Below, in pieces: positions 13,611 through 21,567 of a DNA stretch of 21,567 nucleotides (positions are counted from its first letter, which is position 1; every line of letters starts with the position of its first letter). The stretch lies in assembly GCA_011364905.1 (NCBI GenBank), contig RDNZ01000046.1:1-21567 (forward strand), written 5' to 3'. A program made the position numbers and the translations under genes. Below the pieces are notes generated by a model that had not been told where the DNA came from, searched no databases, and saw only the letters and a program-made list of their open reading frames with translations. The DNA is from Candidatus Thorarchaeota archaeon (GTDB lineage: Archaea; Asgardarchaeota; Thorarchaeia; Thorarchaeales; Thorarchaeaceae).

Positions 13611-13656
13611 TTCGGGAGTGTTTTTGCCGTTCATCTATGTTTCAGAGGGGTTCATG

Positions 13657-14718
13657 ATGACATCGATTTGGAAACAGAAGAAAGGGCTTTTATCCGGAAT
13701 GATTATCGGGATGCTCTTAGGAGTGGGTGGTCTTATTTTCATCAGTCCTCCTCCGGGAAGTGGACCTCAGGGAACTATCGCCACCGCTGGTTCCACAACA
13801 GTTTACCCTCTTTCACAAATATGGGCGACGGAATTCCATCAGGTGTTTCCAAGTTTGACTGTGCAACCACATACAGGGGGATCAGGATTGGGACAGTCTC
13901 TGATTGGCCAAGCTCTAATTGATATTGGAGCGTCAAGTGCCTATCCAAACCAGGCATATATCGATGCGAATCCATCTGTTGAGATATTACCTGTGTCGGC
14001 CGATGCTCTTGGAATAGTTGTTAATCAAGCAGTCAATGGCTCTCTGTTCAAACTGGATTGCGACATGGCAGTCGCTATTTTTCAACGAAATGTCACGACT
14101 TGGGATGATTTCTCTACAGTTTTTGGAGTCACAATTCAACAAAGTGGTCCAATTCATCTATTTGTAAGATCTGATGCTAGCGGGACCACTGCCACTTTTG
14201 CCAAATGGCTTGAAACGTCTGATGAAAATGCCAATCCAAACGGAGCTGATTACGAGTGGCTTCTTGGACATGAAGAAGCCCTATCCTTCCCAGCTGGAGC
14301 AAATGCTGTCGACGGGAATCCAAGTGTGGCTTCGGGCGTTGAGACCGATCAGCAGGCAATTGGATATGTGGGACTTGCTTTCATAGGGGAGTTAGTCGCT
14401 GCTGACTTGTATAATCCAAGCAACGGAGAATGGATCACGCCCTCAATTGCTAATGCTGTGAAGGCCATACCAACCAACTTGACATCCCCTGGTCAAGATA
14501 TCATGAACTCAGAGATTGCAGGGGCATATCCTATAGCTCGATTGTTGTTCTATTTAGTGAATAAGAGCCATCTAAGTCAAAACACAATTACGTTTGTTGC
14601 TTGGTGTCTTGTTCAAGGTCAGAGGTATGTGAGTACAGTTGGTTATGTGCCTATCAATGGTACTGCCGCGCAGAGCTATTCTCTTGGTATGATGAGTGTT
14701 CTTTCGCCATCAATATGA
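13657..14718 (+). CDS. pstS: Phosphate ABC transporter substrate-binding protein PstS
   Basis: N-terminal membrane anchor, AGSTTVYP, GGSGLG, IDIGASS, RSDASGT, AIGYVG, GAYPIAR. First gene of pst operon. Start 13654 or 13657 after GAGGGG. Confidence 0.92.
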   Translation: MTSIWKQKKGLLSGMIIGMLLGVGGLIFISPPPGSGPQGTIATAGSTTVYPLSQIWATEFHQVFPSLTVQPHTGGSGLGQSLIGQALIDIGASSAYPNQAYIDANPSVEILPVSADALGIVVNQAVNGSLFKLDCDMAVAIFQRNVTTWDDFSTVFGVTIQQSGPIHLFVRSDASGTTATFAKWLETSDENANPNGADYEWLLGHEEALSFPAGANAVDGNPSVASGVETDQQAIGYVGLAFIGELVAADLYNPSNGEWITPSIANAVKAIPTNLTSPGQDIMNSEIAGAYPIARLLFYLVNKSHLSQNTITFVAWCLVQGQRYVSTVGYVPINGTAAQSYSLGMMSVLSPSI

Positions 14719-14740
14719 AGTCAAAATGGAGACATGCCTA

Positions 14741-15787
14741 ATGAGTAAGGAAGAGATCCAAGCAATCGATCACTCTGAGAGCGAGAGTGAGGTCTCTTTC
14801 ATTCATAGGTTGAAGAATCGCATAGTCGATCCTTTTGATGATTTCCTCAATGCTGATAGGTCCGGAAAGACCGACAAGGCTGGGAAGGTATTCCTCTTGG
14901 TGCCTGCATTTGCGAGCACCTTAATCATCATTCTTATTCTTGCGTTTCTCCTGTTTGAATCCACGCCTATCCTGACTAGTCCCGTGGGCGGACCGGGGAT
15001 TATCGTTAATCCAACTTGGGATCCCAACAGAAACCTCTATGGTATAGCTATCTTTGTCGTTGGGTCACTCTTGTGTACAACAATCGCAATCGGAATTGCT
15101 GTACCTGTCGGAATCGGTGGTGCTATCTTTCTGTCTGAGTTTTGTCCCATGAGGCTGCGGCAACCAATCAAGATGATAACTGAGATGATGGCTGCGATAC
15201 CATCTATCGTCTACGGTCTTTGGGCCTATATCGTGCTTGTCCCATACATCAAGAACGTTCTAGCTCCAAGTCTTCAGAACAACCCCTTAACCGGATGGAT
15301 CCCTCTGTTTCAGGGCGACACCAACGGGTTGAGCCTTCTTGCTGGAGGAGTAATCCTCGCTATTATGTTGCTCCCGACTGTTGTCACTATCACAACCGAT
15401 GCGCTTCAGACCGTCCCGACTAGCCTTAGAGAGGCCTCACTTGCGCTTGGTGCGACCCAGAGCGAAACCGCCCGCAAAATTGTGATTTCTGCCGCACTTC
15501 CCGGAGTTGGTGCTGCTATTGTCCTCGCACTCGGTCGCGCAGTGGGAGAAACAATGGCTGTGTTGATGGTCACAGGCAACTCTCTGCAAATTCCTTACAC
15601 ACTCTTTGATCCAACCTACGTCATGACCAGCATCATCACGAATCAACTAGGATATGCATTTGTATTCCCGCTCTGGCGGTCCGCCCTCTTTGCTGTGGGT
15701 CTTGTATTAATGATAATGTCAGTCTGTTTCACTTTGACAGCCAAGTTGTTCATCCGGTGGGGAATGAAAACACGGGGGTATATCTAA
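14741..15787 (+). CDS. pstC: Phosphate ABC transporter permease PstC
   Basis: WDP..LYG, AIFLSEF, EMMAAIPSIVYGLW, EAA loop LREASLALGAT, LGRAVGETMAVLMV. ATG 14741 after GGAG. Confidence 0.95.
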   Translation: MSKEEIQAIDHSESESEVSFIHRLKNRIVDPFDDFLNADRSGKTDKAGKVFLLVPAFASTLIIILILAFLLFESTPILTSPVGGPGIIVNPTWDPNRNLYGIAIFVVGSLLCTTIAIGIAVPVGIGGAIFLSEFCPMRLRQPIKMITEMMAAIPSIVYGLWAYIVLVPYIKNVLAPSLQNNPLTGWIPLFQGDTNGLSLLAGGVILAIMLLPTVVTITTDALQTVPTSLREASLALGATQSETARKIVISAALPGVGAAIVLALGRAVGETMAVLMVTGNSLQIPYTLFDPTYVMTSIITNQLGYAFVFPLWRSALFAVGLVLMIMSVCFTLTAKLFIRWGMKTRGYI

Positions 15788-16702
15788 ATGAGCAGTCGAG
15801 TTGGTGCATTGTTTGTATACTTCAGGACCGTGACCCAGTCTCGTCGTCACTTCTTTGACTTCCTTTTCAAGTTTCTTCTAGCCATTGTAATCCTGATTGT
15901 CATTTCGCCATTTTTCCTTGTCCTCATTCAAGTTGCCAGTATTGGATTCCAGCAGGTCTTCGGTAGCGGTCCTGGGCAGGGACTTGAATTCTTCACAACT
16001 TTTCCAGGGGTCGGATTGGCAGGCGGAGTAAGGAATGCCTTTGTGGGCACCGTAGAGCTGGTGGTTCTTGCAGGCGGGGTTGGGATTCCCCTTAGTGTAT
16101 TCGGAGCGGTCTATATCACAGAGTACACACAAGCTGGGTGGACGCGCGCAATTGTAGAGTTCACCTCAGATGTGCTTGCCGGGATTCCATCAATTGTTTT
16201 TGGTGCGTTCGGATTTGCATTTCTTGTGGACTTCCTTCATCTGGGAATGGGCATAATTGCTGGAAGCCTGACGCTTGCGTTCATGATGATTCCTACCGTT
16301 CTCCGAACTACTCAGGAGGCACTGCGCGCAGTTCCCATGTCTCTTCGAGAAGCGTCTCTCGCACTCGGTGCCACCAAATGGTCCACAACTTGGAATGTCA
16401 CTCTCAGGGCGGCATTCCCAGGTCTCATCACAGGAGTCTTACTGGCAATTGGTCGCGTGATGGGTGAAACGGCTCCACTGATCTTCACTGCAGGAAACAA
16501 TCTATCAGTCCCCACATCGTTGACTGGTTCTGGTTCATGGGTCGCATCGATGCCTTATACCATATGGGCTTACATTAGTGACCCGCGAGAGTATCTCCAA
16601 GCCAAGGCTCATGGAACTGCTCTTGCCCTCATGATAATGGTTCTCACGATTGATGTTGTTGCTAATTTGGTCTCACGGAAAGTCACAAGGAGGCTCGTTT
16701 AA
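15788..16702 (+). CDS. pstA: Phosphate ABC transporter permease PstA
   Basis: GGVRNAFVGT, AVYITEY, LAGIPSIVFGAFG, RTTQEALRAVP..LREASLALGATKW, GRVMGETAPL. Confidence 0.95.
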   Translation: MSSRVGALFVYFRTVTQSRRHFFDFLFKFLLAIVILIVISPFFLVLIQVASIGFQQVFGSGPGQGLEFFTTFPGVGLAGGVRNAFVGTVELVVLAGGVGIPLSVFGAVYITEYTQAGWTRAIVEFTSDVLAGIPSIVFGAFGFAFLVDFLHLGMGIIAGSLTLAFMMIPTVLRTTQEALRAVPMSLREASLALGATKWSTTWNVTLRAAFPGLITGVLLAIGRVMGETAPLIFTAGNNLSVPTSLTGSGSWVASMPYTIWAYISDPREYLQAKAHGTALALMIMVLTIDVVANLVSRKVTRRLV

Positions 16703-17466
16703 TGTCTAATTTCAAACATCATATAGAGGTTCACAATCTCTCAACCTGGTTCGGAAAGAAAGCCATCTTGAAGGACATATCATGTTACTTCGAGGACAAC
16801 ACTGTGACAGCGATCATGGGTCCGTCAGGCTGCGGCAAGAGCACACTTCTTCGAACCTTGAACCGTTTGAATGATCTTGTTCCGAATTTCCGCCGTGAAG
16901 GAGAGGTTGTATTCAGAGGGGAAAATATCTATGACATGGGGTACAGCGTGTATGATTTGAGAAAGCACATTGGAATGGTATTTCAGAGACCCAATCCTTT
17001 TCCAATGAGTATCAGAGAGAATATCACTTATGGTCCGAAGCTGCACGGCGTAAAAGATGAGGATGAACTTGAGAAGATTGTAGAGACCTCGCTGAAGAAG
17101 GCAGCCTTATGGGATGAAGTCCAAGACGATTTGGACAAACCCGCTCCGAATCTCTCAGGCGGACAGCAGCAGAGGCTCTGCATTGCGAGGGCACTTTCGA
17201 TAAACCCCCCTGTTTTACTGGCAGACGAGCCCGTTTCAGCTCTAGACCCCATCAGTGCGGCCAAGATAGAAGAACTGATTGTTGAGTTGAAAAAGGACTA
17301 CACCATTATCTTGGTCACGCACAATGTGCAGCAGGCCTTCAGGGTTTCTGACCAGGCAGCTTTTCTTTACTTGGGCGAACTTGTGGAGTTTGAGAAGACC
17401 AAGAGAATCATTGAGGCTCCCGCCGACGAGAGAACCGAGGCATTCATTACAGGAAGAATTGGATAG
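16702..17466 (+). CDS. pstB: Phosphate ABC transporter ATP-binding protein PstB
   Basis: GPSGCGKST, GMVFQRPNPFPMSI, LSGGQQQRLCIARAL, DEPVSALDP, VTHN, FITGRIG. TAATG stop/start overlap with pstA. Confidence 0.97.
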   Translation: MSNFKHHIEVHNLSTWFGKKAILKDISCYFEDNTVTAIMGPSGCGKSTLLRTLNRLNDLVPNFRREGEVVFRGENIYDMGYSVYDLRKHIGMVFQRPNPFPMSIRENITYGPKLHGVKDEDELEKIVETSLKKAALWDEVQDDLDKPAPNLSGGQQQRLCIARALSINPPVLLADEPVSALDPISAAKIEELIVELKKDYTIILVTHNVQQAFRVSDQAAFLYLGELVEFEKTKRIIEAPADERTEAFITGRIG

Positions 17467-17475
17467 GTGAGTAAA

Positions 17476-18162
17476 ATGTCAAAACAGCTAGATTACTATT
17501 TGAAGGAAATCGAAAAGAGACTCGGCATTCTATACAAACTAACAGCCAGGTCGCTTTCAGAAGCGATGACTGCCTTCAAGACGCTGGACCAAGAGTGTGC
17601 GACAAAGGTGAAGGAAATGGCTACTGAAATCGAAACCTTGTCTGAGAATATCGAAGATAACGTGTTTGAGACCATTGCGCGAAGGCAACCAGTAGCAAGA
17701 GATCTGAGACGATTGTCCGTATATCTGCAAATCACTCACAGTCTTTTCCGAATCGGTAGGTATTCCTACAAGATTGCTCACATCACTAATCTCTGCCAAA
17801 ACATGGAGCACTTCAAAGAGCTCCAGTCACTGCCCTATCTAGCTCAACAAGCTATCATGACTCTTGATATTGCAATGAAAGGGATACTCGAAGGGGATCT
17901 ATCAAGAATAGACGAATTGGAAAAACTGGAAGCTGAAACTGATAGAGAGACCTCTGAGATGTTCGATGAAATCGTGATGTATCTTCGCGGACAGGAGGGA
18001 ATCGAGAAGATGGCACTGTTCTACATAATTGTAGGAAGATACTATGAGCGAGCCGCAGACCAAGCCTTCCTAATAGCCGAGAAAGCTGTGTATATGGTTA
18101 CTGGGAAGAGAAAGAAGCTTGGAGTCGCATACAAAGGAAGCGCAAGTCAGGCGCCCCATTAA
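17476..18162 (+). CDS. phoU: Phosphate uptake regulator PhoU (paralog 1)
   Basis: IARRQPVARDLR, YERAADQA, AVYMVTG, directly after pstB. ATG 17476 after AGGTGA. Confidence 0.92.
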   Translation: MSKQLDYYLKEIEKRLGILYKLTARSLSEAMTAFKTLDQECATKVKEMATEIETLSENIEDNVFETIARRQPVARDLRRLSVYLQITHSLFRIGRYSYKIAHITNLCQNMEHFKELQSLPYLAQQAIMTLDIAMKGILEGDLSRIDELEKLEAETDRETSEMFDEIVMYLRGQEGIEKMALFYIIVGRYYERAADQAFLIAEKAVYMVTGKRKKLGVAYKGSASQAPH

Positions 18163-18213
18163 TCGGAAAGTCTTAATCTCTATCCTACAAACAAAAGTCG
18201 TCGGTGTATAACC

Positions 18214-18900
18214 ATGAGTTCTGAACTTGCTCTCGAGATTGTCAAAGTCACCAAGCATCTTGCAGACCTTCAGGCCTTGGTCGCCAAAGCTCTGACACAG
18301 TCAATAAAAGCCTTCGAAGACCTCGATGTCGAGCTCGCTTCTGAAATCATTTCAGTGTCTGATCAAGTGGAGGAGCTTCACCATTTCATAGAGAACTTTG
18401 TCTTTACTACGGTTTCAAAGTATCAACCCACAGGGATTGACATCAGACGTTTGATTACATACTACCATACGTCCGGTTGCCTCCGAAACATCGGCCGCTA
18501 TGCTGGCAAAATTTCGAAGATTGTAGAGTTCTGCGAAGATCTTGATCACTTCAAGGAACTCGAGTCACTACCGTATCTTGCAGAGCTGGCTATCTCTGCG
18601 ATTGATACCAGTATGAGAGCTGTCTTTGATGAAGACCTATCAGAGATCAATGAGATAGAGAAGTTGGAGGCCCAAAGTGACAATGAGGCTGCTGAAATGT
18701 TTCAAGAGATTGCGGAATACCTCAGTCGACGAAGGGATATCAGTGAGCTTGCAATGTACTATGTTATTGTGGGACGATACTACGAACGGGCGGCAGATCA
18801 AGCTATCAGTATAGCTGAATATGCCATATACACTATCACTGATGAACGCAAACAACTTGGACTAGCGTATGAGAAAGAATCAGAAAGCATGCTCGATTGA
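18214..18900 (+). CDS. phoU: Phosphate uptake regulator PhoU (paralog 2)
   Basis: YQPTGIDIR, HFKELESLPYLA, VGRYYERAADQA; collinear with the preceding PhoU. Confidence 0.9.
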   Translation: MSSELALEIVKVTKHLADLQALVAKALTQSIKAFEDLDVELASEIISVSDQVEELHHFIENFVFTTVSKYQPTGIDIRRLITYYHTSGCLRNIGRYAGKISKIVEFCEDLDHFKELESLPYLAELAISAIDTSMRAVFDEDLSEINEIEKLEAQSDNEAAEMFQEIAEYLSRRRDISELAMYYVIVGRYYERAADQAISIAEYAIYTITDERKQLGLAYEKESESMLD

Positions 18901-18909
18901 ATAGTCTAC

Positions 18910-19428
18910 TTATTCCTTGGGTTTGCGAATTTCTCGAACCAGTTCCTCGAATGCCTGGTTCACATTCAGGTTCTCCGTAGCACTTGTCCGAATCCACATT
19001 AGCCCTCGTGACTCCACCATCCCCCTTATCTGCTCCTCAGAAATCACAGACTCAAGATCGATTTTGTTTTCGACCACAACCACGGCAACCTTTCCTGCAG
19101 CATTAAAGAGCGCTGTGAGCCAATCATCCATGTGCTGAAGTGTCTCTATGCGTGTCCTATCGAAGACAAAGAATGCACCAGATGCGTTAGCACAATACTG
19201 TTCTCGCAGTGCAGAGAAGGACTCTTGACCTCCGAGGTCCCAGATAACAAGCTTATACTTCGATCCTTCAAATTCTAGTGACTTGACATGCAACATTGCT
19301 CCGATTGTTCGACCGATATCGGGAGCTAGACTATCATACACATAGCGCTGTACAAGTGAAGTTTTTCCTACACTGCTGTCTCCTAAGAAGACGAGCTTAT
19401 GGACGAAATCGGGCTCGCCGCCAATCAC
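18910..19428 (-). CDS. Rab-like small GTPase (divergent copy)
   Basis: G1 GDSSVGKTS, G2 TIG, G3 WDLGGQ, G4 NKID, G5 TSAT. Start placed at GTG 19428 after AAGGAG. Confidence 0.92.
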   Translation of the reverse strand: MIGGEPDFVHKLVFLGDSSVGKTSLVQRYVYDSLAPDIGRTIGAMLHVKSLEFEGSKYKLVIWDLGGQESFSALREQYCANASGAFFVFDRTRIETLQHMDDWLTALFNAAGKVAVVVVENKIDLESVISEEQIRGMVESRGLMWIRTSATENLNVNQAFEELVREIRKPKE

Positions 19429-19455
19429 ATTACATATCTCCTTTCCCAAGCTTAG

Positions 19456-19983
19456 CTAGATGCGCCTATCACGTGCTTTGACTAATATATCACGTGTCAT
19501 TTGCCTAAAAGCTTCTTCTACATTTGTATCTTCCTTTGCACTTGTGGCAATGATTGGAATATTGTGTTTTTTCTTCACAGCTTCTTTGACCTCAGGCGGT
19601 ACAGCACTCTCAAGATCCACCTTGTTTTCAAGCAAGACTAATGGAATCTTCCCTGTTACTGTAAACAGAGCATTTAACCAATCATCCACACGTTCAATGG
19701 TCTCAGGTCTCGTGGTGTCAAACACAAAGAAAGCTCCAGATGCATTCATGTAATAGGCTCTCCTGAGCTGAGCGAAGTTGTCTTGTCCGGCGATGTCCCA
19801 GATGACCAGCTTCACTACAGTTTCGTTAAGGTTCACCATCTTCACATGAATGTCTGTCCCAATTGTGGCTAGATAATCCCCCTCAAAACTGTCATACACA
19901 TAGCGACCTACCAGACTAGTCTTGCCTACAGCTCCTTCACCCAAAAAAACCAGTTTGAAGAGGTAGTCAACGTTGTCGGGCAG
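19456..19983 (-). CDS. Rab-like small GTPase (canonical copy)
   Basis: DYLFKL, G1 GEGAVGKTS, G2 YLATIG, G3 WDIAGQ, G4 NKVD, G5 TSAK, NVEEAF. The ORF-track start (20289) overlaps the opposite gene; probable real start is CTG 19983 after GGAG. Confidence 0.92.
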   Translation of the reverse strand: MPDNVDYLFKLVFLGEGAVGKTSLVGRYVYDSFEGDYLATIGTDIHVKMVNLNETVVKLVIWDIAGQDNFAQLRRAYYMNASGAFFVFDTTRPETIERVDDWLNALFTVTGKIPLVLLENKVDLESAVPPEVKEAVKKKHNIPIIATSAKEDTNVEEAFRQMTRDILVKARDRRI

Positions 19984-20130
19984 GGTCCGTACGCTCCATG
20001 GAATGGCGTGTTTGAAACTTGAAAACGCTACTCTTCTAATAACACTATCGCCCATGTTTTCTGTACCAAAATCCGCACCAAAAGTCAGAAAAGGCGGAAC
20101 CATGCTTTTCGAAGTCAGAGGCCAAGAGAA

Positions 20131-20922
20131 ATGGAAGTTGGAACCTTCGCACGCAATAATGAGCAGGTCCGAAGCGCCATCAAGAATGAACCGGATTTCA
20201 TAGACCTCCGCATGGATCTGAACTTCAGCATCAATTTTGGCGAAGCCAAAGCTGATCTGAATAAGGCGGGGATTCCTTGCACACTTCATCTTCCAAGTAA
20301 TCCTGACTGGAAGCCGATTGAACTAAGCCGCGGAATCGTTCCATACATTGATCTGGGGCGGCAAATTGACGCAGAAGTGGTGACATTCCATACAATGCTT
20401 TCCACACTCTTCTATGATGACTATGACATTGAGACATTCCTGAAAGCATTACCTTTGGCGTGCGAGGCGTCGAAAGAAGCTGGAGTTACATTGGCAATTG
20501 AGACTCTAGGTCTATACTACACTGAAATGCAACTACTCTTCGACATGTTCCCTAATATGAGAATGGCATTAGACATCGGACACGGGCAAATCTTAGCAAG
20601 AAGAAATCGCGCACTTGACCATATAGCCTCATTTTACGACCAGATTGTCATGGTCAATGTTCATGACAACAATGGATCTCAAATGGTTGATGACGTCCAG
20701 AAGATGAAGAAAGAGAGAGAGGTTTCTCAGGGAGAGATTCGCGAGCTTGCAGTGCGGTATGACACCCATCTCCATATTGGCGAGGGTGAGATAGACTTTC
20801 AAACAATCTTCAAAGAATTGAAACAACGAGGATACAGCGGCAAGTTCTTGATGATGTGCGAATGTCCTTCAGACTTTCCACGTGAGAGAGAGAAGTTTAT
20901 GGAACTATGGCTGACTTCCTAG
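20131..20922 (+). CDS. Sugar phosphate isomerase/epimerase (xylose isomerase-like, AP endonuclease 2 TIM-barrel family)
   Basis: TLHLP, VTFH, LAIET, ALDIGH, VHDNNG...DTHLHIGEGEIDF, GYSG motifs. Confidence 0.85.
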   Translation: MEVGTFARNNEQVRSAIKNEPDFIDLRMDLNFSINFGEAKADLNKAGIPCTLHLPSNPDWKPIELSRGIVPYIDLGRQIDAEVVTFHTMLSTLFYDDYDIETFLKALPLACEASKEAGVTLAIETLGLYYTEMQLLFDMFPNMRMALDIGHGQILARRNRALDHIASFYDQIVMVNVHDNNGSQMVDDVQKMKKEREVSQGEIRELAVRYDTHLHIGEGEIDFQTIFKELKQRGYSGKFLMMCECPSDFPREREKFMELWLTS

Positions 20923-21567
20923 CCCGATTTTGCCAGAGACTCAACGAGTTTGAGGACATCCTTCAAACCCTTCTTATCATCCGCCTTTTCATAAAATGCG
21001 CGCGCTCTTCTGACAGCATCCATAGCAAGGTCGGGCTTTCCTTGTACGACGAAGAACCTGGCTTGCTTAAGACGGGCTGCTCCCATGCCGCTATAGACTT
21101 CTTTCGGATACTCGAACATGTCAACATTGATGACCTTCCCACAATCCGGACAGGCAATAACCAGATCTAGATCGGAGTCGACAGGTTTCTGCGGCGATGC
21201 TTGTTCCTGGGCTTTGGCTGGTGCTGGCTCACTTGGAGGTGGAGCCTTTACTGGAGCTGCAGGAGGTGCCTGGGCTTTATCAACTGGTGATGGTGCGGAG
21301 GGGCTATCGACAGGTGTCTCGACTGTAGTTGCTTCAAGCACGGGGACCTCACCCTCCATTTCAAAGCCTGATGGAGAAGTCCCAGGCGGGATTCCTGTGT
21401 CAGGAGAAGGAGGGATAACAGGTTCTGGTTCTGGCTCTGGGGGATGCTCAACATAAGCAGACTTGGACCCAAGGATTGATTCCTCAATCTGGGATGATGT
21501 TGGACCAGCCTTGGGCATAAAAGCGGCAGCTTCAGGAGGAAGTGGTTCACTTCCTTCCATCATAGTT
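20919..21567 (-). CDS. 3' part of a hypothetical protein: Pro/Ala/Glu-rich linker, CxxC knuckle, TPR-like C-terminal helices (probably partial)
   Basis: Frame is open to the window edge. Low-complexity PEPEPEP/APPAAP linker, IACPDCGK, then amphipathic helices. Stop overlaps the TIM-barrel stop at CTAG (20919-20922). Confidence 0.75.
   Translation of the reverse strand, partial: TMMEGSEPLPPEAAAFMPKAGPTSSQIEESILGSKSAYVEHPPEPEPEPVIPPSPDTGIPPGTSPSGFEMEGEVPVLEATTVETPVDSPSAPSPVDKAQAPPAAPVKAPPPSEPAPAKAQEQASPQKPVDSDLDLVIACPDCGKVINVDMFEYPKEVYSGMGAARLKQARFFVVQGKPDLAMDAVRRARAFYEKADDKKGLKDVLKLVESLAKSG

Follow-up and report, generated by a model that had tools for sequence, protein, structure and literature searches.

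A conserved tandem pair of Rab-like small GTPases with asymmetric divergence in Thorarchaeota

Two adjacent genes for Rab-like small GTPases, copy A upstream and copy B downstream, are encoded on the minus strand of contig RDNZ01000046.1 of a Candidatus Thorarchaeota archaeon (GenBank assembly GCA_011364905.1), all 21,567 nucleotides (nt) of which were analysed here and are called the window. As judged from genome comparison, the pair is a real, conserved and order-specific predicted operon of two GTPases that have diverged asymmetrically. We give a probability of roughly 55% to the reading that it is a vertically inherited, order-specific two-GTPase operon derived from a single ancient tandem duplication, in which B would be a working accessory GTPase with different kinetics. 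The two proteins are annotated Rab-like GTPases of the already known Asgard expansion; no published description of the tandem pair, or of a B group lacking Phe28 (F28, Ras numbering), was found in the literature searched, which does not disprove its existence elsewhere.

Results

Two paralogous GTPase genes lie in tandem

Copy A (19456..19983, minus strand) encodes a canonical Rab-like small GTPase of 175 amino acids (aa), with a CTG start at 19983-19981 and a stop at 19458-19456, and copy B (18910..19428, minus strand) encodes a derived one of 172 aa with a GTG start, carrying L28, I32, R34, S12, DLGGQ in G3 and SAT in G5. A sequence-only reading of the window had already described these two co-oriented open reading frames (ORFs) at these positions and in this order. 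Both proteins matched the Pfam Ras profile (PF00071) over positions 1-161 of 162 (A, E 2e-43, 148 bits; B, E 2e-38, 131.9 bits; cut-off 21.6), which places them in the Ras superfamily, and they aligned to each other with 51% identity over 161 residues and zero gaps (E 4e-54), so that their paralogy is far beyond chance. All the strings quoted in that reading as shared were found in both proteins, and so were the quoted differences, namely FEGDYLAT, SAK and DIAGQ in A versus LAPDIGRT, SAT and DLGGQ in B. Its Ras numbering (28, 32, 34, 35) is that obtained by ungapped counting from the P-loop, and in HMMER alignments to Rab14 and Rab22A the flagged residues likewise face F28 of Rab, the position that precedes the switch-I Thr, and the Lys of G5.

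The start of A was examined by comparison of 55 orthologues, in which the codon at 19983 is CTG in 49, TTG in four and GTG in one, and the next codon is freely variable. A Shine-Dalgarno-like GGAG (19994..19997, minus strand) stands 10 nt 5′ of the CTG and at the same distance in 46 of the 55 orthologues, with GGAGnGT nearly invariant in the DNA alignment. The ATG at 20055, which would give a protein of 199 aa, was rejected, as more than 30 orthologues have in-frame stops within its extension. Because the start codon and the GGAG are conserved and the ATG extension is not, comparison across species indicates that A most likely starts at the conserved non-canonical CTG 19983, in keeping with the 5′ limit previously given to it. 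Here an automatic gene caller would choose ATG 20055, and at other loci in-frame stops would mislead it. A seven-codon upstream ORF from this ATG was also discarded, since neither the ATG nor the frame is conserved beyond the closest species and the conservation is at the DNA level. For B, TTG 19449 was set aside in favour of GTG 19428, which lies 27 nt after the A stop and 9 nt after another Shine-Dalgarno-like GGAG (19438..19441, minus strand) within that spacer; an ATG, GTG or TTG follows a GGAG-like run at this position in most orthologues.

The pair is conserved across Thorarchaeota and arose by one duplication

A locus set was made from one genome per species holding a B orthologue of ≥60% identity (57 loci), beyond which the next matches fall sharply to ∼40%. 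A followed by B on one strand was observed in 56 of these 57 Thorarchaeota loci, the A orthologue (61-86% identity) being the gene directly before B, and the 57th begins inside B. The A orthologues, from 55 species, share 61-89% identity, and more than 120 relatives of B at 68-99% identity were found in the database, the named ones being ‘Rab family GTPase’ of Thorarchaeota. A survey of 87 genomes of the class detected both genes in 65, one gene in eight (mostly at contig ends) and neither in 14. Within a sample of the phylum, the A/B clade was detected only in the family of the window (14 of 17 genomes) and in its sister family (1/1), and none of 102 genomes from 24 further Asgard families contained it at E ≤ 1e-45.

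A maximum-likelihood tree was constructed from A and B, this genome's further 15 Rab-like paralogues and 44 related sequences of other lineages; all trees here are made of archaeal sequences only. By the Shimodaira-Hasegawa-like approximate likelihood ratio test, A plus B form a clade with support of 99, within which A (88) and B (99) separate as two monophyletic groups, so the two are sister paralogues from one duplication, as the sequence-only reading had supposed. Its claim of a conventional A and a derived B likewise agrees with the tree, in which the stem of B is three-fold longer than that of A (0.43 versus 0.14) and the total tree length is 10.9 for B versus 7.6 for A, corresponding to an ∼1.4-fold faster within-group rate of B. 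The sister family holds one copy only, which is A-like with F28, Y32, DIAGQ and SAK, and this identifies the canonical state as ancestral and that of B as derived.

Both copies are under strong purifying selection, with a median omega (ratio of nonsynonymous to synonymous substitution rates) of 0.067 for A and 0.061 for B in 22 species pairs with unsaturated synonymous divergence. An intact B ORF was found in 55 of 56 species. B has been lost in one genus, in which G024 (L081) has A without B on a 916-kb contig, while in G023 (L082:3860-4090) an intact A precedes a degraded B, a pseudogene that has a stop and a replaced Lys in its P-loop as well as an internal deletion. None of the 87 genomes of the class clearly has B alone, and these two observations together mark B as accessory to A rather than an obligate partner. 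Thus, of the two-GTPase module proposed earlier, the conserved linkage stands, while B is dispensable in one genus where A stays. In the lineage of G023 and G024, A has Pro at the Ras G12 position, as does A of L032 and L052, whose B has Glu at the catalytic Gln.

Copy A is near-frozen at the nucleotide pocket whereas copy B has drifted from an unusual ancestral state

Residues were counted in 55 A and 56 B orthologues. G1 GxxxxGK[ST], the switch-I Thr, G3 DxxG, G4 NKxD and G5 SA[x] are invariant in both groups, except for the last G5 residue of B; GKT, T35, DxxG and NKxD are thus conserved in A and present in 56 of 56 B orthologues. Ten switch-I residues of A are essentially invariant (53-55 of 55), with F28 and Y32 in all 55 and Ala34 in 53; A also has DIAGQ in 52 of 55 and DIGGQ in three, and the catalytic Gln and SAK without exception. 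In B, by contrast, switch I is variable: position 28 is L in 44, M in five, I in two and F in five; position 32 is I, V, M or T; and position 34 is R in 49, S in three, Q in two and H in two. The B group further has a DLGGQ-type G3, Gln (45), Glu (9) or Gly (2) at the catalytic position, and T (29), L (20), V (3), I (2) and others, never K, at the end of G5.

A non-aromatic residue 28, R34 and a non-Lys residue 147 occur together in 45 of the 56 B orthologues. Parsimony on the B tree reconstructed L28, R34, Q61 and T147, which is the state in the window, for the B ancestor, followed by nine later changes at position 28, three of R34, seven of Q61 and 11 at position 147 (among T, L, V, I, M and S). 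The L28/R34/T147 pattern, whose conservation had been put forward as a check, is therefore ancestral in B and largely kept as a class, while its individual residues drift. The AlphaFold2 model of B (mean predicted local distance difference test score, pLDDT, 86.8) has a confident Rab fold and a low-confidence switch I, and adds nothing on mechanism; its best Foldseek matches are Rab1b, Rab8 and Rab11.

Loss of F28 is the outlier among the flagged substitutions

The sequence-only reading had likened the changes in B to Ras-activating substitutions (F28L, P34R and K147T equivalents) and had taken DLGGQ as a distinguishing G3. Their rarity was assessed in a further 59 archaeal Rab-like relatives and among this genome's 15 remaining Rab-like paralogues. 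F28 is present in 59 of 59 and 15 of 15, respectively, and Y32 in 51 of the 59 relatives, while the G5 Lys is found in 50 of 58, with SAL in three of this genome's other paralogues. Arg34 occurs in 1 of 59 relatives, the position being otherwise Q, P, A, S and others, and in one paralogue here, together with SAL. DLGGQ is common, with 5 of the 17 Rab-like paralogues of this genome carrying it (five of them among the other 15), and the G3 argument carries little weight. The G5 Lys is also absent from Rac1 and Cdc42, which have Leu, and from Arf, which has Thr.

Position 34 is not conserved in archaeal Rab-like proteins, hence the ‘P34R’ equivalence is not transferable. Moreover, Arg34 and Leu147 are both found in the solved Thor-Rab, an ordinary GTPase in vitro that binds GDP and GTP-gamma-S and, unassisted, hydrolyses GTP much as Rab11B does (Tran et al. 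2024, PMC10933270), so R34 and K147T do not hold as activating equivalents. The orthologue of Thor-Rab 7EZB in this genome (G000:C57:8568-9122, L084:269-823; E 2e-101) has SSAL in G5 and an Arg preceding the switch-I Thr. According to Tran et al., the Thor-Rab Arg aligns with Arg53 of MglA, and other Thor Rab paralogues are without a switch-I Arg (PMC10933270); the latter remark fails for the B group, with Arg in 49 of 56 species.

What stands out is F28 itself. The guanine-stacking F28 is substituted by L, M or I in 51 of 56 B orthologues, a sequence hallmark of fast cycling, and its loss is a real outlier given that all 59 relatives and all 55 A orthologues keep F; within B, however, the F has repeatedly come back. 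Ras F28L is fast-exchanging. For RhoU and RhoV, fast exchange has been attributed to a changed residue at position F28 (PMC13236570). On these comparisons, loss of F28, together with Y32, is the only flagged change that would support a fast-exchange reading, and the oncogene-style interpretation of the B substitutions appears partly supported.

A and B resemble Rabs but differ from the closest known GTPase systems

Eukaryotic Rabs are the best sequence and fold matches of both proteins (Rab1/8/11/14 for B and Rab38/32/23/7 for A), a resemblance and not a placement. A has DIAGQ and the Ala before the switch-I Thr in common with Rab32/38. By eye, RabF motifs are partial, with KLVIW near RabF2 and FVFD[TR]T near RabF5 in both and IGxD in A only. 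A C-terminal Cys, as used for geranylgeranylation of eukaryotic Rabs, was found in 0 of 55 A tails, which are short and polybasic, and in 1 of 56 B tails, and B is also without the conserved aromatic residue 28. By the missing prenylation Cys, A and B would be Rab-like, not Rabs in the eukaryotic sense. Thor-Rab (PDB 7EZB/7EZD/7EZE; PMC10933270) is likewise a Rab-like G domain from Thorarchaeota that lacks a prenylation tail, and it shares with B the Arg before the switch-I Thr and the non-Lys G5 (SSAL); it belongs, however, to another orthologous group (E 1.9e-31 to A; outside the best 60 matches of B), keeps F28 and Y32 unlike B, and is not reported as a member of a tandem pair.

RhoU/RhoV and the engineered F28L mutants of Ras, Cdc42 and Rac1 are changed, as B is, at the guanine-packing F28 position, but RhoU/RhoV are of another family and have Tyr there, whereas the residue in B is aliphatic and repeatedly reverts to F. 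The group 1 MglA has an Arg directly before the G2 Thr, as seen at the sequence level in B of 49 of 56 species, while A has Ala-Thr; the other MglA hallmarks, i.e. a Thr in G3, a G1-G2 insertion and an adjacent MglB/Roadblock gene, are absent from B, which aligns to Rabs gap-free through G1-G2 and is far closer to them in sequence and fold. In RagA/B-RagC/D (Gtr1-Gtr2), two paralogous small GTPases work as a unit, and a Rag-like pair is encoded in one operon of the Asgard strain MK-D1 (PMC10933270); the Rag/Gtr dimer is held by C-terminal Roadblock domains, while A (175 aa) and B (172 aa) are bare G domains. A and B would thus not be members of the MglA or Rag families.

Expression signals point to probable co-transcription

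A TFB-recognition-element (BRE)/TATA-like element, the candidate promoter/operator of A-B, lies at 20035..20052 (minus strand), ∼50 nt 5′ of the CTG with which A starts. This 18-nt element is near letter-for-letter conserved across many Thorarchaeota species; its CGATAGTGTTATTAGA-type core is conserved in most of 45 aligned species, with a TTTTATC variant in distant lineages. It is retained beside A also where the divergent TIM-barrel gene is missing, and its conservation, exceeding the need of a plain promoter, makes a transcription-factor site at 20035-20052 possible. The element is unique in this genome at ≤1 mismatch, and a role as regulon signal was discarded since it occurs only once here. 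A structured RNA or riboswitch upstream of A was also rejected, with no Rfam match at E ≤ 1 and the conserved blocks reading as BRE/TATA and Shine-Dalgarno.

The spacer between A and B is 27 nt here and mostly 20-75 nt across the species loci, reaching 60-160 nt in some lineages and ∼800 nt in G077. One promoter-like element, two Shine-Dalgarno sites and the 27-nt spacer make co-transcription of A and B likely in this lineage, and the tandem arrangement noted from the window was borne out as conserved, with the two genes 27 nt apart here behind one promoter-like element. The weak start codon of A could set the A:B ratio.

Neighbouring genes and other GTPase arrays

The neighbourhood of the pair is syntenic across the class, with a Pro-rich protein and a TIM-barrel gene upstream and a convergent PhoU-PhoU-pstBACS cluster downstream, and the pair stays together across 17 genera while its flanks vary, including the presence or absence of the TIM-barrel gene. 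In the window, pstS-pstC-pstA-pstB followed by two tandem PhoU paralogues (13618-18900) converge on the GTPase pair, an order syntenic in ∼35-49 Thorarchaeota species. The Pro-rich context gene (20919..21563, minus strand), whose association with the pair is uncertain, encodes one CxxC and a confidently predicted C-terminal three-helix bundle and is truncated by the contig end. It was found upstream of the pair in 49 species loci (e.g. L001:1385-2494), with a full protein of ∼340-370 aa, and it directly adjoins A, co-oriented, in six species without the TIM-barrel gene. The AlphaFold2 model of its C-terminal 95 aa (pLDDT 83.6) had no significant fold match in the PDB, only MIT/TPR/Sec17-like ones with a best E of 0.36. 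The Pro-rich protein may be a partner of the GTPases. The Pfam scan of the window detected neither a Roadblock nor a longin gene.

Two more close pairs of Rab-like GTPase genes are present in this genome (G000:C78:48592-51149 and C32:11213-12347); one of the two has its genes ∼1.3 kb apart on one strand and the other is divergent and overlapping. Co-oriented arrays of three to four small Ras-like GTPase genes were observed in Thermoplasmata (L068, L069, L071, L074) and in other Asgard lineages (L058, L060, L062, L075), so tandem GTPase expansion is not special to Thorarchaeota.

Discussion

A kept the ancestral canonical nucleotide pocket with near-frozen switches I and II. We propose that it is the main switch and is constrained by conserved partners, as the frozen switch regions suggest that it has fixed ones. 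B diverged fast after the duplication, losing both guanine-sandwiching residues (F28 to L/M/I and the G5 Lys to T/L/V/I) as well as Y32, gaining the Arg before the switch-I Thr and altering its P-loop and switch II, while keeping every Mg-GTP-binding residue and apparently guanine specificity. From these residues we infer that the loosened base pocket of B most likely brings weaker nucleotide binding and faster spontaneous exchange, and that its changed switch surfaces probably engage partners other than those of A. B is probably co-expressed with A and probably acts in the same pathway, accessory to A; any coupling of the two, physical or functional, is putative.

Several observations weigh against this proposal. 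Position 28 has reverted to F in at least four independent instances within B, and the drift at positions 28 and 147 and at the catalytic Gln looks like relaxed constraint, not like selection for an ‘activated’ state. With Thor-Rab, carrying Arg34 and Leu147, being ordinary in vitro, two of the four flagged substitutions carry little weight. Where the A-B spacer reaches 60-160 nt, or ∼800 nt in G077, B may have its own promoter, and co-expression of A and B would not itself demonstrate a shared pathway. Furthermore, the 14 of 87 genomes of the class in which the pair was not found have completeness of 52-97%, with some at 93-97%.

Rather unlikely, in our assessment, is that A and B are not functionally coupled, being two of ∼17 Rab-like paralogues that are adjacent by conserved gene order, with B an ordinary switch having its own regulators and effectors. 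Adjacency by itself says little about coupling, the whole neighbourhood being syntenic in the class; tandem arrays of three to four such genes are likewise present in Thermoplasmata and further Asgard lineages, and B was lost without loss of A. In the lineage of the window, however, the 27-nt spacer leaves no room for a separate promoter, and the pair has stayed together across 17 genera with varying flanks.

The model first drawn from the window, in which B is independent of a guanine nucleotide exchange factor (GEF) and/or resistant to a GTPase-activating protein, is mostly GTP-bound and forms a heterodimer or cascade with A, we regard as unlikely. It would account for the joint loss of the G5 Lys, Y32 and the F28 that all relatives keep, for the reconstruction of L28/R34/T147 as ancestral in B and for the tight, conserved linkage; it has published precedents in the fast exchange of proteins substituted at F28, and the catalytic Gln is replaced in 11 of 56 B orthologues. 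But its ‘P34R’ and ‘K147T’ arguments are not transferable, as the ordinary unassisted GTPase of Thor-Rab with Arg34 and Leu147 illustrates, a RasGAP-type partner is not known here, A persists in one genus that has lost B, and neither protein has a dimerisation domain.

It is more doubtful still that B carries an MglA-type intrinsic arginine finger, i.e. that the Arg before the switch-I Thr reaches the gamma-phosphate and makes B a faster ‘off’ switch hydrolysing GTP alone or with a Roadblock/longin-type helper. The catalytic Arg53 of MglA directly precedes the G2 Thr54 (PMC3199381, PMC4316618), Arg occupies the corresponding position in 49 of 56 B species versus 1 of 59 relatives, and the switch-II Gln (or Glu) is kept in 54 of 56 B orthologues. 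Yet Thor-Rab, with the same Arg, has an unassisted GTPase that is merely Rab11B-like and slow on its own; B has Asp, not Thr, in G3 and no G1-G2 insertion, Pfam detected no Roadblock or longin gene in the window, and Arg34 disappeared three times from a gene that persisted. That B is a decaying duplicate or a pseudo-GTPase no longer binding or hydrolysing nucleotide is extremely improbable: its more variable switch I, the loss of the catalytic Gln in 11 of 56 and a pseudogene in one species with absence in a sister species would fit, but an omega of ∼0.06, as low as that of A, intact ORFs in 55 of 56, invariant GKT, T35, DxxG and NKxD and the confidently predicted Rab fold speak against it, and the omega and intact motifs rule out decay for most species.

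The proposal of an ancient duplication with B as an accessory GTPase can be extended, by analogy, to an archaeal two-GTPase switch, in which a fast-exchanging, GEF-independent B with a loosened base pocket and an Arg in cis would bind or regulate the canonical A, and the weak CTG start would set the A:B ratio; this extension is speculative, and we hold it to be very unlikely. If it were true, the A-B switch would parallel a eukaryotic GTPase acting on its paralogue.

Asgard small GTPases are central to ideas on the origin of eukaryotic membrane traffic and signalling. Their genes are generally not found in informative operons and are rarely in operons at all, which makes it hard to match a single Asgard GTPase to its partners (PMC10933270). 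Here, an order-wide pair with a clear polarity is available, an ancestral-type A versus a derived B without the F28 that the other archaeal Rab-like proteins invariably have. The corrected gene model of A, with its CTG start, matters to anyone expressing the protein. The pair constitutes a small, defined system for the evolution of GTPase kinetics and specificity after duplication in a prokaryote, with built-in controls in the natural revertants (B with F28, as in L008 and L019) and in a natural knockout (the genus without B). Should B prove to be fast-exchanging and to regulate A, the pair would be a minimal, regulator-poor forerunner of eukaryotic GTPase cascades that could be reconstituted from two small proteins.

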